Positions 4,680-44,780 of a stretch of DNA of 64,000 bases are shown one piece after another. The stretch lies in assembly GCA_964452045.1 (NCBI GenBank), contig CAYVKM010000004.1, positions 2,659 to 66,658 of the forward strand, read 5' to 3'. The stretch comes from an uncultured Calditrichaceae bacterium. Its GTDB lineage: Bacteria; Calditrichota; Calditrichia; RBG-13-44-9. The notes under the pieces were generated by a model. That model was not told where the DNA came from. It saw nothing but the letters and a program-made list of their open reading frames with translations, and did not search any database. The translations under genes and the position numbers were made by a program. Positions within the stretch are counted from its first letter, which is position 1, and every line of letters starts with the position of its first letter.

Positions 4680-5222
4680 GTGAAATTATCAGAGGCGAAG
4701 GAATTAAGGGAAAAAACATATCAGATGCTCCGGGAAGCGAATATCGTAATCTCTCCCGAAGAAAGGGCAAATATCGAGATCGCTGATTTTGGACTGGACG
4801 ACATAAACAATATGGGCTTACAGCTGGTGGTGTATGAAAATAATGACCGTTATTGCGCCAAGGAACTAGTACTGTTTCCCCGGCAAACCTGTCCGGAACA
4901 CCGGCATCCGCCATTAAGTCATCAGAACATCGGAAAACAGGAAACCTTTCGGTGTCGTTGGGGTGAGGTATACCTCTATCTGGATGGCGAGCCAACCAAA
5001 GATCCAAAAGCGGTAATTCCTAGGAAATATAAAGATTATTTCCAGGTTTGGAAGGAAATCATTCTAAAACCGGGTGATCAGTTTACTTTGCCTCCCAACA
5101 CCAAGCACTGGTTCCAAGCCGGGGATAATGGGGCGATTGTCTCGGAATTTTCTTCTACCAGCAGCGATGAGATGGACATTTTTACCGATCCGAATATAAA
5201 CCGACTTCCGGTTTACGAATAA
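4680..5222 (+). CDS. D-lyxose/D-mannose ketol-isomerase (cupin, YdaE-like)
   Basis: 180 aa, GTG start preceded by an AGGGAG ribosome-binding site. Aligns with B. subtilis YdaE along almost its full length (RYCAKELVLFPxQTCPEHRHPP...GKQETFRCRxGxVYLY...PPNTKHWFQAG...STSxDxxDIFTDP). Confidence 0.85.
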   Translation: MKLSEAKELREKTYQMLREANIVISPEERANIEIADFGLDDINNMGLQLVVYENNDRYCAKELVLFPRQTCPEHRHPPLSHQNIGKQETFRCRWGEVYLYLDGEPTKDPKAVIPRKYKDYFQVWKEIILKPGDQFTLPPNTKHWFQAGDNGAIVSEFSSTSSDEMDIFTDPNINRLPVYE

Positions 5223-7690: not shown

Positions 7691-8815
7691 ATGATAAATA
7701 CTATTCAACAAACAAAAGACTTTTTAACACGGCTCTGGCGAATGGAAAACGAGGAGCGTCCGGGATATGTGTTGAGTTATCTCGGTCCGGAGGTCGGGGG
7801 AGGCCCGGTAGTAAGAAGTGCCCTTTTTTCGACCGAGGGTAAAGATACGGTGCGGGACAGGCTGCTTAATCCCGGTAAATATTTGCAGGCCCAACTGGAC
7901 GAAATAGAAGATCAGTTAAAACTCCGGGGAGATTTTATACCCAGCCTTTGCCCGTCACTCGGTGTTATTGCGATTGCTTCTGCCTTTGGTTGTGAGGTGG
8001 TCTGGTGGGAAAAGGATTTTCCCGCGGTAAAACCCATTATGGAAGGGGAATTGGAGGAAGTACAAGATTTGTCCAAACCGGATCTCACTGCCGGTGAACT
8101 TGGCAGAATTCTGGATTACACCCATTTTTTTATTGAGGAAACCAGCAGCGAATATCCGATCCGGCTTACGGATATCCAGGGACCTTTGGATAATGCCGGA
8201 CTTATTATGGGGCATAACAATCTTCTGACTGCCATGCTGTCCCATCCGTCAGCAGTCCATCATCTGATGGATCTGGTAACCGATCTCATGATTGATTTTA
8301 TTAAGGCCCAGCGGGAAATTGTATACAAAGCAGGGATTGATTTCGTTCCGGCCATGTTTCTGCCCTGGATGCCGGATGGACTGGGAGTTGCAATTTCCAA
8401 TGACGACTGGGTAATGATTTCTCCTGAGATGCACAATGAATTTCATCTCCCTTACCTGAACCGGCTCTCGGAAGAGTTTGGTGGGATTTACCTCCATTCC
8501 TGCGGAAACTGGCAGCATCAGATTTCCAGCATAAAGAAGATATATCAACTTCGTGGACTGGAATTTGGGGCAAGCGAGACCCCGCCTGAAGCTGTTTTTG
8601 GCGCGTTCAATGGGAAAATCGTCTTAGCCTGCCGGGTGGGATTTAACCGGGATTATCCTTTCGCCGGGATGGCGGATTTTGTTCGGCGCATTCTGAAAAC
8701 CCGGAAAACCAATCGCGGTCTATTTATCAATATTGATGTGACAAATGGGCTTACCGACCATAATTGGCCGGAAACTGATATCGGCGAAATCTACCAATTA
8801 CTGGGAGTGGAATAG
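7691..8815 (+). CDS. URO-D/MtaA-family protein, paralog 3
   Basis: 374 aa. LHSCGNWQH motif and overall length and pattern shared with the neighbouring paralogs. Confidence 0.55.
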   Translation: MINTIQQTKDFLTRLWRMENEERPGYVLSYLGPEVGGGPVVRSALFSTEGKDTVRDRLLNPGKYLQAQLDEIEDQLKLRGDFIPSLCPSLGVIAIASAFGCEVVWWEKDFPAVKPIMEGELEEVQDLSKPDLTAGELGRILDYTHFFIEETSSEYPIRLTDIQGPLDNAGLIMGHNNLLTAMLSHPSAVHHLMDLVTDLMIDFIKAQREIVYKAGIDFVPAMFLPWMPDGLGVAISNDDWVMISPEMHNEFHLPYLNRLSEEFGGIYLHSCGNWQHQISSIKKIYQLRGLEFGASETPPEAVFGAFNGKIVLACRVGFNRDYPFAGMADFVRRILKTRKTNRGLFINIDVTNGLTDHNWPETDIGEIYQLLGVE

Positions 8816-27442: not shown

Positions 27443-27759
27443 TTTTTCTTAGGTTAATATAATGAAAACTTTCGAATTGTGTCAATATTTATATCATCCC
27501 GAAGCGATATTGTCAGACTAATACTTTTTTTATAAATATGTTGATGAAGAATTCATATTTTTTGAACTTTCTGTCGGATTTGGGAATTAGAGTAAGTTGA
27601 ATATATATTGGATTTTTGTTAGCAAATGTTTACTGTTAAAATTTTGGATAATTGAATTTGATTTTTTAAGTTTCGGTGTCGAAAATAATAGTTCAGCTTT
27701 CACTCAACTTTATGTTAAATTATGTGCTGAATTAAATTTATTATGTTTAGGATAATTGT

Positions 27760-30740: not shown

Positions 30741-32054
30741 TTGATTCTTGAATTCATTTTTTATGCACTTATTTTTATCATCTTATTAATTTTTTCCGCT
30801 TTTTTTTCCGGTTCGGAGACCGCCTATTTTTCTTTAACCCCGGCTCAGTTAGACCATTTTAAGAACTCCCGTAAGGTGAGCGATAAACGGGTAAGTAAAT
30901 TGATGATTTGGCCGCGCCAGCTGCTGATAACAATTGTTATTGGTAATACCGTGGTCAATATCACCATTGCATCTATCGCTGCAGTTCTCACGGTTCAGCT
31001 GAGCAGACAGGTGGGGCTCCATGAAAATGTAATTATCCTATTGGATGTATTAGTGGTCACGTTTGTTATTCTGGTAGTCAGCGAAATATTGCCAAAAGTG
31101 ATTGCCGTGCGAAACACCGAGCGATTTTCAAAAAGGACCTCTTTAATACTGACTATTATTTTCTATATTTTTTACCCGATATCGTACGGACTGGCAAGAT
31201 TTACTCACTTTTTGCAAAAAAATGTCGGGCTTACCGAGGAAAAAATCCTGCTCACCGAAGATGAGGTGAAAACTCTGGCAGAAGTAGGTGAGGAACATGG
31301 CACTTTGCATAAAGATGAAAAAGAGATGATCCACAGCATATTCGAATTTGGTGAAACCACGGTCAAGGAAATTATGGTCCCCCGAACCGATATGGTTATT
31401 GTGGATACGAATTCTACTCTGGCTAAATTAATGCAATTGGTTAAAGTAAAACTGCACTCACGTATCCCGGTCTATAAGGATGAAATTGATAATATCATCG
31501 GTATTTTATATGTCAAGGATTTATTGCCCTACCTGAATAAACGCAAGAAAGAGCCAATCGATCTGCAGAAATTAGCCAGACCGCCTTATTTTGTCCCGGA
31601 ACAGAAAAAAATTGACGATCTGCTGAAGGAGTTCCAGGAAGAACACATCCATATGGCATTGGTTGTTGATGAATACGGTGGCCTCTCCGGTTTAGTGACA
31701 CTGGAAGATATAATTGAGGAGATCGTGGGCGAAATTCAGGATGAGTATGATAAAGAGACACCCCTGTTTAAGAAAATAAGTGAAAATAGTTTTCTGGTTG
31801 ACGGCAGGATGTCAGTGGAGGAACTGAATGATGAACTAAATATGCAGCTACCGGAAATTGAGGGTGTGGAAACCATCAGTGGATTTATTCTAAATCTGCT
31901 CGGTTCTTTACCATTGGAAAAAGAGGAGGTGAAGTATAGCAATTATAAATTTATTGTGGAAAAAATTAACCGTAATAGAATTTTAAAAGTACGAGTGGAG
32001 ATTGTTCCCATTGCCGAAGATCAAAGCGAAAAGACCGAACCCGAAAAGCAATAG
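30741..32054 (+). CDS. CorC/HlyC-family transporter-associated protein (DUF21 TM + CBS pair + CorC_HlyC)
   Basis: 437 aa. Four N-terminal TM helices, tandem CBS domains and a C-terminal transporter-associated domain. Apparent TTG start. Confidence 0.8.
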   Translation: MILEFIFYALIFIILLIFSAFFSGSETAYFSLTPAQLDHFKNSRKVSDKRVSKLMIWPRQLLITIVIGNTVVNITIASIAAVLTVQLSRQVGLHENVIILLDVLVVTFVILVVSEILPKVIAVRNTERFSKRTSLILTIIFYIFYPISYGLARFTHFLQKNVGLTEEKILLTEDEVKTLAEVGEEHGTLHKDEKEMIHSIFEFGETTVKEIMVPRTDMVIVDTNSTLAKLMQLVKVKLHSRIPVYKDEIDNIIGILYVKDLLPYLNKRKKEPIDLQKLARPPYFVPEQKKIDDLLKEFQEEHIHMALVVDEYGGLSGLVTLEDIIEEIVGEIQDEYDKETPLFKKISENSFLVDGRMSVEELNDELNMQLPEIEGVETISGFILNLLGSLPLEKEEVKYSNYKFIVEKINRNRILKVRVEIVPIAEDQSEKTEPEKQ

Positions 32055-38503: not shown

Positions 38504-38622
38504 ATTAAAATTTCTTTTAATTATTGCGGTAACCAGGTTAATTTAATAAATATTTTTCCGAACATTATCTATACTTTTGTTTTAAATTATTGTATCTATT
38601 TTTACAAAATTAGGGAGTTTAA

Positions 38623-38823
38623 ATGGACAAGGTTACCATTTGGCATAATCCGCGCTGCAGAAAAAGCAGGGAAGGTTTACAATATTTAAAGGATAAGGGT
38701 GTCGAACCCGAGGTTTTTGAATATATGAAAACACCTTTTTCGCCTCAAGAATTAGCAGAGATTATCAGATTCTCCGCACAACGGCTTCTAAAAGATTATG
38801 CGAATATACAAATTCCATGGTAG
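38623..38823 (+). pseudogene. ArsC/Spx-family (thioredoxin-fold) gene, apparently C-terminally truncated
   Basis: 66 aa. VTIWHNPRCRKSREGLQYLKDKGVEPEV matches the N-terminal half of ArsC/YffB proteins (IYHNPxCxxSRxxL). Family members are 115-140 aa. The stop coincides with the start of an AT-rich segment. Confidence 0.45.
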
Positions 38824-39016
38824 CGAAATATGAAATTATTAAAACATATGCTTACTTCGGATACAAAGATTAGCCACTCTATTCAATAGAGATTGAACTA
38901 GTCTTTATATTCCAAGAAGTTTTATAGATAGACTAATATATTGGTCAGCTTAGGATTAAAACTATCTTTAGGGCTTCAGTAAAGATTATAGTTTAGTATA
39001 AGGTACTATTTCGATA

Positions 39017-39424
39017 ATGAAACTATTTCACATAATAATTTTTGTTTCATTTTTGTTGTTAGTTTTATGGCGATTTATGGCCAATTTGCTTTTTGCAGAA
39101 TATTTTGAAGAAAAAATTATTAATATCCCCATACTAAAAGTTCTTGAGAAGAGAGTCTTTAACATTTTGTTATTTGCTCTATATACCTACTATGCTTACT
39201 TATATGCGGAATTATCGATATTTTGGTTATTTATTTGGATTTTTTTTCTTCTGCTATTTATTTTTCAATTGTTTGTAATTTATCTATTTAAGGGGCGGCC
39301 AAGTGAAAATATTAATGTTACAGAAGCGAATTTAAAAAGGTTAGTTAGACATAGAAGAATATTTAGCGCATTTGACTTTTTTATATTAGCAATTTGGATT
39401 TATTCTTGGAGATTCTTGATATAG
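39017..39424 (+). CDS. Hypothetical small polytopic membrane protein in an AT-rich segment
   Basis: 135 aa with about 4 predicted TM helices and a positive-inside loop (KGRPSEN...KRLVRHRR). Extreme F/L/I/Y content reflects the local GC of about 25-30%. Weak ribosome-binding site. May not be a real gene. Confidence 0.35.
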   Translation: MKLFHIIIFVSFLLLVLWRFMANLLFAEYFEEKIINIPILKVLEKRVFNILLFALYTYYAYLYAELSIFWLFIWIFFLLLFIFQLFVIYLFKGRPSENINVTEANLKRLVRHRRIFSAFDFFILAIWIYSWRFLI

Positions 39425-39838
39425 GATACTCTCCATCATTTAATATAATAAGATTATATGTTTATCGTAAACCACAATAGAAAATTCAAAATAGAAAAAC
39501 CTCAAAAGACAAGCCCAAGAAAACATTAATACAATTCCATAAAAATATTAAAATAATTTATTAAGAATATATACAATTCGCCAATTATAGTTAACTGAGG
39601 TTTACTGGTAGTACTGATTAAAATTCGTGATAATTTCACTTAGAATATATAAAGTTATGATTATTGATTTTTTCACCATTGGCGGACAAATAGATTATAA
39701 ATTGAGCTTTTCATATTGAAGAAGAAAAAAATAATTTTTTTAATCAATAAAATATTCAAAAGGAGCGAAAAAGATTTAGCTTGAAATAACTGCCAATTAA
39801 TTTTAATTTTCCATTGCTTTAAATTTCAGCTAGAGGTT

Positions 39839-40396
39839 TTGATGATTCAACATTTCCGAAAATCTATCTTTTTTCTTGTCTTTTTGATTTTTTTATTTGG
39901 TTGTGCAGGTACAAAAAAACAGACCGGTGAGCAACCCCCTTCTGGTGAGAAGATTGAACTGAATGAATCCTTTGATCCGCTTTTGTTAGATGATGAAGAT
40001 ATTAAATTTGAAAAGAAAAGTAAACCTTCGGAAACCATTGCACCGTTAAATCTGCCCCCGGAACAAAAAGCGACAATTCCCATCAACGAATTGGTGGATG
40101 GATTCCGGATTCAACTAATTTCAACAAAAGATCTGGAAAGCGCCACGAAAGCCAAGCTCATCGCCGAAGAACAATTCTCCGACTTACAAATTAACTTTTA
40201 TCTGGAATTCGATTCACCTTATTATAAAGTGAGGGTAGGAGACTTTAAAACTCGTGACGATGCGGAGAGCATCCGCGAGGTTATACGTTCCCGGGGATAT
40301 CCGAAAGCATGGATTGTGAAAACAAAAGTATGGACTCATCCTGAAATCAATCTGATTTCAGACTCCACCGAAGTTGAAACCCCAGATATTGACTGA
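39839..40396 (+). CDS. SPOR-domain lipoprotein (septal peptidoglycan-binding)
   Basis: 185 aa. Lipobox FLFGCAG. C-terminal SPOR repeat (GFRIQLISTKDLESATKAK...YYKVRVGDFKTRDDAE...). Confidence 0.7.
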   Translation: MMIQHFRKSIFFLVFLIFLFGCAGTKKQTGEQPPSGEKIELNESFDPLLLDDEDIKFEKKSKPSETIAPLNLPPEQKATIPINELVDGFRIQLISTKDLESATKAKLIAEEQFSDLQINFYLEFDSPYYKVRVGDFKTRDDAESIREVIRSRGYPKAWIVKTKVWTHPEINLISDSTEVETPDID

Positions 40397-42441: not shown

Positions 42442-43464
42442 ATGGAACGAGACGTTATAAGTCCTCGCCCTTTAAGTGAAGATCAGGAATTTGATATTTC
42501 ACTGCGTCCCCGAAATTTGAAAGATTTTGTGGGACAGGATAAAGTCAAAGAAAATTTAAGCATTTACATTGAAGCAGCCAAGCAACGCTCGGAGGCTCTG
42601 GATCATGTATTACTCTATGGTCCGCCCGGATTGGGAAAAACCACACTGGCTCATATCATCGCTAATGAACTATCGGTGGATATTAAAACCACTTCCGGTC
42701 CGGTGCTCGATAAGGCAGGGGATCTTGCCGGACTACTTACCAATTTAAAGGAGTACGATGTTATTTTTATTGATGAGATTCATCGTCTGAATAATGTCGT
42801 GGAGGAATATCTGTATTCTGCCATGGAAGATTTTAAACTGGACATCATGATTGACCGGGGACCAAATGCCCGCAGCATCCAGATTGATCTACCACAATTT
42901 ACTTTGATTGGTGCCACCACCCGGGCTGGTTTGTTGACTTCACCAATGCGGGCCAGATTTGGAGTAGTGTCACGACTTGATTATTATAACTCGGATAACC
43001 TGAAAAGTATTATTTTGCGATCTGCTAAAATTCTGGATGTTAAAATTGATGATGAAGGCGCATTTGAAATTGCCCGACGGTCCCGGGGAACCCCCAGAAT
43101 AGCCAATCGGTTATTAAGGAGAACACGCGATTTTGCTCAGGTCCGTGCCGATGGGAATATCACCAAAGAGGTAGCAGACAATAGCCTGAAAATGCTGGAA
43201 GTGGATGAGCGTGGGCTGGATGATATGGATAAACGTATCATCAAAACCATTATTGAGAAATATAATGGAGGCCCGGTAGGATTGAATACTATTGCGGTTG
43301 CGGTGGCAGAGGAAAGTGAAACAATTGAAGAATTATATGAACCATTTTTAATTCAGGAAGGTTTTATTAAAAGAACACCCAGGGGTAGGGTAGCTACTCA
43401 ACTGGCGTTTGAGCATTTTAACTATACATTTAATAATTATGGATTCCAGGAAAAACTATTTTGA
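42442..43464 (+). CDS. ruvB: Holliday junction ATP-dependent DNA helicase RuvB
   Basis: 340 aa. Walker [12 protein letters not shown] and FIDEIHRL. Confidence 0.9.
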
Positions 43465-44512: not shown

Positions 44513-44698
44513 TCCTTATTGGCTTTGTATTATTTTTTTGCTATTTCCTGCTCCTTTGAAAATTTCTCAACTATAATTTGTTTAGGTTATCAAACCTCCT
44601 CTATAGTTTATCCTCAGATAATTTTCCTCCCCAGATAATGCTGAATTGAAATCAGATTTATTCTCAAATAGAAAAAATCAAAAAATTAAACTTAATAC

Positions 44699-44750
44699 TT
44701 GCATTTTTTAAAAAATTTCTTAATATATGGTGTGTGGTTGAAAATGGGGC
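44699..44750 (+). promoter_or_regulatory. Putative dcw-cluster promoter region with possible MraZ-box-like GTGG/TGGGG repeats
   Basis: TTGCAT (-35-like) followed by TAATAT (-10-like) about 15-19 nt downstream. Then TGGTGTGTGGTTGAAAATGGGG directly upstream of mraZ. Spacing is not canonical. Confidence 0.25.
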
Positions 44751-44780
44751 AAATTCCATCGAATTTCACTAAAATCATCA

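Follow-up and report, generated by a model that had tools for sequence, protein, structure and literature searches.

A probable orphan immunity gene of a polymorphic-toxin system in an AT-rich kilobase of a Calditrichaceae genome

The AT-rich segment and its genomic surroundings

Between a truncated arsC gene and the co-oriented genes SPOR, yebC, ruvC, ruvA and ruvB of an uncultured Calditrichaceae bacterium lies a gap of 1015 bp (positions 38824-39838 of the 64-kb stretch of DNA analysed here, hereafter the window). It is the largest gap between long open reading frames (ORFs) in the window, where the median is 18 bp, the runner-up measures 317 bp and 45 of the 51 gaps are no longer than 150 bp. 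With a GC content of 25.5%, as against 42.7% for the whole window, it lies 4.6 standard deviations under the mean and is the sole stretch of 1015 bp below 30% GC. These values bear out the original prediction of an AT-rich, nearly non-coding kilobase with a single ORF. The predicted compactness of the surroundings also stands, although the GC content elsewhere had been put somewhat too high, at about 45%.

The gaps next in size have an ordinary composition. They are found at 27443-27759 (317 bp, between divergent genes), 1757-2044 (288 bp) and 44513-44780 (268 bp, upstream of the co-oriented genes past ruvB, which we take, without annotation, to be the cell-division and cell-wall (dcw) cluster). 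Some adjacent long ORFs in our mechanically generated list overlap by 53-71 bp (8745-8815, 32002-32054 and 43409-43464), which most likely reflects over-extended start codons and not true overlaps.

Comparison with related genomes placed the actual anomalous unit at approximately 38785-39755 (about 970 bp, 25% GC), offset from the gap as first delimited. It starts inside the upstream ORF and stops 83 bp before the SPOR gene. The features described below are all given on the plus strand.

The upstream ORF (38623-38823, 66 aa) was recognised as a truncated glutaredoxin-type arsC from its match to TIGR00014 and from an alignment with orthologues. It matches positions 1-46 of the 114 positions of the model (E = 4.4e-16) and fails the full-length test (59.4 bits against a cut-off of 106). 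Compared with the intact orthologues in two relatives (116 aa in L004 and 113 aa in L008), homology ends after about residue 55, and the final codons read into the foreign segment. The N-terminal part, 46-55 residues that retain the HNPxCxxS catalytic-cysteine motif, is shared with glutaredoxin-type ArsC, but the C-terminal half, which in R773 ArsC holds the Arg60/Arg94/Arg107 triad, is missing in the window. Because of this missing half, we regard the gene as a pseudogene or fragment. A frameshift-aware search throughout the segment for a remnant of the C-terminal half gave a score at the level of shuffled sequences.

Calditrichota is a little-studied sediment phylum known mostly from metagenome-assembled genomes (MAGs). 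Using a SPOR-protein scan with one genome per species, we collected 16 related loci, all from Calditrichota/Calditrichaceae MAGs. Calditrichota share the synteny queG-fer4-GDPD-MBL (minus strand) followed by SPOR-yebC-ruvC-ruvA (plus strand); the segment 38785-39755 is absent from 16 of 16 loci. A core gene, as the original prediction had noted, would show the same spacer and ORF in all relatives; neither occurs in any of them. MBL adjoins SPOR in six loci (gaps of 142-514 bp), while two others (L008 and L010) carry arsC and a cysteine desulfurase between MBL and SPOR. The presence of the desulfurase there marks the interval between arsC and SPOR as a recurrent variable spot in Calditrichaceae. 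The desulfurases measure 386-390 aa and look NifS/IscS-like by eye (L008, 8464-9636, minus strand; L010, 5072-6232, minus strand). The arsC of L010 (4714-5053) is apparently split over three frames: tblastn matches cover 4714-4764 and 4769-4867, and the C-terminal part falls in an ORF of its own at 4874-5053. This suggests either that arsC decayed independently there or that the MAG contains sequencing errors.

The closest relative, L004, shares 82-96% amino acid identity with the window in the complete flanking genes, and its site contains the intact 116-aa arsC followed by a spacer of 115 bp. In a base-level alignment, window positions 38533-38786 correspond to L004 3624-3877 and window positions 39756-39899 to L004 4097-4240 (88% identity), which puts the breakpoints at about 38785 and 39756. 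Between the aligned blocks there are about 970 bp in the window and 219 bp in L004, with nothing alignable. This alignment indicates that the lineage of the window exchanged 187 bp at the 3' end of arsC, along with 32 bp of the spacer, for foreign DNA, and, together with the absence from all 16 related loci, it supports the earlier suggestion that the kilobase is what remains of an island gained by horizontal transfer.

Outside this assembly, three contigs (two from JGI samples, one from a Logan run) match the window at 100% identity. One of them (L003) crosses both junctions, and the other two (L001 and L002) start within the arsC upstream region and cross the right junction only. Since three contigs from other assemblies are identical, the structure is not an assembly artefact.

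Downstream of its single long ORF, orf135, the segment ends in a non-coding tail of 23% GC (39425-39755), in which no ORF of at least 40 codons was detected. We searched this tail for remnants of the genes that trail the orf135 homologues in other genomes and found none; the homologues elsewhere are also trailed by a non-coding stretch, of about 100-260 bp. The sole match in an Rfam 15 scan was a miRNA model (20.9 bits against a threshold of 85, E = 0.65), and no tRNA or tmRNA was found in the window. The remaining 83 bp of the gap (39756-39838) are the native upstream region of SPOR-yebC-ruvCAB; they belong to the right-hand block shared with L004 and lie outside the insertion.

Both copies of the direct repeat AGAATATATA reported in the original prediction were recovered in the tail (39564 and 39642). 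The segment has 9 pairs of repeated 10-mers, as against 6.3 +/- 4.2 in shuffles (p = 0.23); since repeated 10-mers match the shuffle frequency, these copies are at chance level and uninformative.

The orf135 family and its gene neighbourhoods

The only long ORF in the gap, orf135 (39017-39424), encodes 135 aa, of which 64 (47%) are leucine, phenylalanine or isoleucine. ORFs of at least 135 codons occurred in at most 0.0002 of the segment shuffles, and the GC content at third codon positions (GC3) is 0.265 compared with 0.435 +/- 0.041 in the host. Together with the homologues described below, these observations show that orf135 is a real gene. AlphaFold2 (AF2) with the family alignment (pLDDT 89.9, pTM 0.78) predicted helices at residues 2-25, 27-35, 39-63, 67-91 and 103-130, i.e., four long helices and one short, in agreement with the four-helix, F/L/I-rich membrane protein first proposed. 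From their positive charges, we infer that both large loops (26-47 and 92-113) are cytoplasmic.

A word-indexed protein search with orf135 retrieved only itself, whereas exhaustive scanning of 1.84 billion cluster representatives with HMMER detected eight full-length relatives of 140-154 aa (E = 5e-9 to 8e-4), to which a profile search added a ninth. The family is thus rare (about 10 members), and its members are 24-31% identical to orf135 and align with it end to end. Six residues are invariant (F12, W70, L124, W127, S130 and W131), and the family carries the motifs AYxYAxxSxFWL and LxxWIxSW.

No fitting family was found for orf135 or its relatives in Pfam, NCBIfam, PHROGs or PADLOC. Fold searches with the orf135 model returned generic helical bundles only, and a search of PDB sequences returned nothing. 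A match to AgrB (PF04647) was rejected: it reaches 18.9 bits against a threshold of 23 (E = 0.001), covers positions 82-159 of the 185 in the profile and is seen in two of nine family members.

Most of the nine known relatives lie on contigs of 0.5-3 kb. We obtained the contigs of all nine, and seven of these (L020-L026) reach far enough upstream to judge the neighbourhood. In seven of seven, the homologue follows a co-oriented gene after a gap of 15-39 bp. In L020, L023, L024, L025 and L026 this upstream gene encodes an Rhs protein matching TIGR03696 (Rhs_assc_core) above the cut-off (E = 1e-12 to 4e-20), with a variable extension of roughly 185-245 aa C-terminal to the Rhs core. The upstream neighbour in L021 contains a pretoxin-HINT (PT-HINT) domain (PF07591, E = 5.5e-14), and that in L022, with just 45 visible residues, is too short to assign. 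In the Rhs-core toxin of L023 (3-1931), matches to BACON_2/Ig-like and choice-of-anchor D domains lie N-terminal to the core, an unusual front end.

The toxin ends have in common an unannotated domain of about 100 aa, which runs from GMGNxWNYFxHIxKGKK to a tail rich in W/Y-G-x-G. The genes carrying it are located at L020 1-1074, L021 3-596, L023 3-1931, L024 2-1225, L025 9236-9985 and L026 2-895. A profile of this domain found no matches among 5.8 billion clusters, the query fragments included; no Pfam relative was detected, and PDB sequences gave nothing meaningful. Two of the contigs (L025, 9236-11693; L026, 2-3209) contain arrays in which orphan Rhs C-terminal (Rhs-CT) fragments alternate with small, unrelated putative immunity genes. 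Among the latter are genes for a 60-aa membrane protein (L025) and a 170-aa protein with a PH_40 domain (L026).

In every locus from L020 to L026 the putative immunity gene is much more AT-rich than its toxin gene (GC3 of 0.12-0.28 against 0.24-0.44), and amino acid content alone is insufficient to account for the split. This difference elsewhere matches the AT-rich contrast that drew attention to the window.

In polymorphic-toxin systems of the Rhs, CDI and related types, the immunity gene stands directly behind the C-terminal domain of its toxin (PMC3150448). Since its relatives occupy the slot directly after a toxin C-terminal end, we read orf135 as an immunity gene; by gene order and analogy with these relatives, it is probably an immunity protein. 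The homologues have the position of RhsI-type genes in seven of seven contigs, and the window copy has a vestigial toxin tail only, 69 nt upstream. Distribution and composition are likewise of the RhsI type, the one sporadic and the other distinct from the host: the gene occurs in none of the 16 related loci, the family has about 10 members, and the GC3 contrasts with that of the host.

The tail in question was found upstream of orf135, where all three forward frames are interrupted by stops. Frame 2 reads IPRSFIDRLIYWSA* at 38909-38953 and resembles the toxin tails RPKGFVNNVVFWTG (L020) and IPKGIINRIFWGAG (L028). A toxin-tail HMM against the stop-delimited peptides of the upstream 230 bp was not significant (p = 0.5), and a frameshift-tolerant Smith-Waterman alignment was used in place of the HMM on stop-delimited pieces. 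With the L020 tail it scored 38, compared with 21.9 +/- 3.6 in shuffles (p = 0.0033), and p was 0.025 when the best score among seven toxins was taken. The held-out tail of L028, fetched after the hypothesis had been formed, scored 38 at the same site against 19.0 +/- 3.2 in shuffles (p = 0.0007), a score that no 230-bp host window, of 544 examined, attained. The distance from the end of the motif to the orf135 start codon is 69 nt, and the equivalent in L020 is 72 nt. From the sequence similarity, 38909-38953 is probably the vestigial 3' end of a polymorphic-toxin gene; it spans about 14 codons, and its support comes from two toxin tails (L020 and L028) of related modules.

Origin of the segment and competing explanations

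Taken together, the AT-rich kilobase is probably a horizontally acquired orphan module, composed of a toxin remnant and an immunity gene, from a polymorphic-toxin locus. The acquired fragment would comprise a dead toxin 3' stub, the intact immunity gene orf135 and the non-coding tail, and it may have entered through illegitimate recombination in the interval that separates arsC from the SPOR-yebC-ruv operon, removing 187 bp from the end of arsC together with 32 bp of the spacer. The original prediction had proposed looking for flanking repeats or att-like sites, and we found no target-site duplication (TSD), terminal inverted repeat (TIR), att or attC signature that accounts for the entry. No convincing TSD or TIR is present at the junctions, there is no transposase-type or multi-copy sign of an IS, MITE or transposon, and attC core pairs (RYYYAAC ... 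GTTRRRY, 40-140 nt apart) are lacking on both strands of 38701-39900. Searches with blastn and tblastx for further copies of the segment in the window and the related loci found none.

Among immunity proteins, those for colicins and TsaI span the membrane several times. The orf135 protein would be lodged in the inner membrane and there neutralise a small C-terminal toxin domain delivered by competitors on Rhs or PT-HINT proteins. No similarity to an Rhs core or toxin C-terminal domain was found in the 64-kb window, so orf135 would be an orphan within this stretch, and the host cell would resist a weapon that it does not carry itself, at least within these 64 kb. The combination of a membrane-embedded partner with a basic toxin domain that has an aromatic and glycine-rich tail suggests, by analogy, that the cognate toxin acts on the membrane, by depolarisation or pore formation. 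As for expression, read-through from the arsC promoter region, which is conserved in L004 (38533-38622), might drive transcription of orf135, a speculative step. A fuller version of this reading, which we hold tentatively and at slightly less than even weight, is that orf135 and its roughly ten relatives belong to an undescribed toxin/immunity pair, in which a basic C-terminal toxin domain of about 100 aa on Rhs/PT-HINT proteins may attack the cytoplasmic membrane and a four-helix protein may serve as its immunity partner, with the window copy solitary and expressed from the promoter of the destroyed arsC.

The explanation that survives best besides the acquired toxin/immunity module, though we consider it improbable, is that orf135 is a genuine orphan membrane protein, such as a transporter accessory protein or a fragment of an AgrB-like peptidase, and that its linkage to toxins is coincidental. 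The weak AgrB match and the small sample of seven contexts would allow for this. That match, however, is sub-threshold and covers half a domain, other family members match unrelated models equally weakly, and coincidence is hard to reconcile with the same architecture, with gaps of 15-39 bp, in seven of seven contexts.

Slightly less probable still is that orf135 is itself a small membrane toxin, a holin or a phage-exclusion (abortive-infection) protein on the remnant of a prophage or defence island. The original prediction had raised a small toxin or phage-exclusion membrane protein as one option, and its idea of a defence-type membrane protein holds, but the neighbourhoods point to immunity to Rhs/PT-HINT toxins and not to a toxin or exclusion function. 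In its favour, orf135 is small and polytopic and lies on AT-rich foreign DNA, and single family members show weak, sub-threshold holin matches (PF07332, E = 0.0084; phrog_14914, E = 0.081). Yet orf135 itself has no match in PHROGs or PADLOC, distant-mode blastn against phages and plasmids gave just chance matches of about 50 bp in AT-rich sequence (E of about 2e-3), and there are no phage genes nearby. Moreover, every relative contig that could be judged shows the immunity position, and six of the seven upstream genes encode Rhs/PT-HINT toxins.

We give very little weight to the view that the segment is decayed native DNA drifting towards AT, either the 3' half of arsC or a cysteine desulfurase gene of the kind seen in L008 and L010. 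The site does vary among the relatives, some of which carry the desulfurase there, and the arsC of L010 looks frameshifted. A tblastx search of the segment against all Calditrichota loci, those genes included, found nothing, though, the search for the C-terminal half of arsC stayed at shuffle level, and an intact 135-codon ORF with family-specific conserved motifs is unexpected in decayed DNA. The decayed gene once suggested for this gap is therefore seen in part, in the truncated arsC and the toxin 3'-end vestige, but orf135 is intact.

Least probable of all, a long leader, sRNA or promoter region for the SPOR-yebC-ruvCAB-queA operon, also among the options first raised, would fit the co-oriented position directly upstream and the 13 promoter-like hexamers, but shuffles contain 9.4 +/- 2.9 such hexamers (no enrichment, which leaves the consensus scan uninformative), Rfam yields only the chance miRNA match, and the role is excluded in practice since the operon functions in relatives that lack the segment, which have 142-585 bp between MBL and SPOR and, in L004, a spacer of which only the last 83 bp are shared.

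Relation to known toxin-immunity systems

Orphan toxin-CT/immunity modules and orphan immunity genes, sometimes located after displaced effector 3' ends, are established (PMC3150448, PMC5361080, PMC10539506, PMC12247911). Since such genes and Rhs C-terminal/immunity modules are well established, the locus does not represent a new kind of biology.

The closest parallels to the proposed acquired module are the orphan rhs-CT/rhsI and cdiA-CT/cdiI modules (Poole et al. 2011, PMC3150448; Koskiniemi et al. 2014, PMC3967940). Like the window module, these consist of a promoterless toxin C-terminal fragment, a short gap and an intact immunity gene, and they are horizontally acquired with a composition of their own; the arrays of L025 and L026 are textbook cases. 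The described modules follow a complete rhs or cdi locus, whereas there is no rhs within the 64 kb of the window. They also usually keep the whole C-terminal domain from the DPxGL or VENN motif, compared with about 14 recognisable toxin codons here. Unlike them, the window module lies in a housekeeping locus, where arsC was destroyed.

An immunity gene without its effector is likewise what characterises orphan immunity genes and islets, as in the arrays of Vibrio cholerae (PMC5361080), the acquired interbacterial defence of Bacteroidales (PMC12247911, PMC10470768), Rhs immunity in Serratia (PMC10539506) and an islet in Salmonella Typhi (PMC7400221). These are presumably retained to resist the toxins of other cells, and displaced effector 3' ends can persist upstream of them. 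In contrast to those islets, the window has a single gene and not an array, lacks a recombinase or T6SS cluster, and represents a new family in a phylum outside the coverage of those studies.

Being small and polytopic, predicted for the inner membrane and, in its relatives, encoded right after a toxin, orf135 also resembles the membrane immunity proteins for colicins A, E1 and Ia, TsaI for TspA (PMC9484751) and those for the T6SS pore-formers Ssp6, Tse4 and Tke5 (PMC6889166, PMC12909789), all of them partners of toxins that depolarise the membrane or form pores in it. It differs from these in having no sequence or specific fold similarity to them, and the mode of action of its toxin is suggested here by analogy only.

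Compared with these systems, the novelty lies in the family pair, in the phylum and in the solitary position within a housekeeping locus, where a native gene was lost. The catalogue of polymorphic toxins would gain an unannotated immunity family together with its partner toxin domain, and a compositional oddity would be accounted for as a trace of interbacterial warfare in Calditrichota. Next to the arrays and islets described in other phyla, the window would offer a clean example of an orphan immunity gene that lies outside any toxin locus and whose arrival cost its host a native gene.
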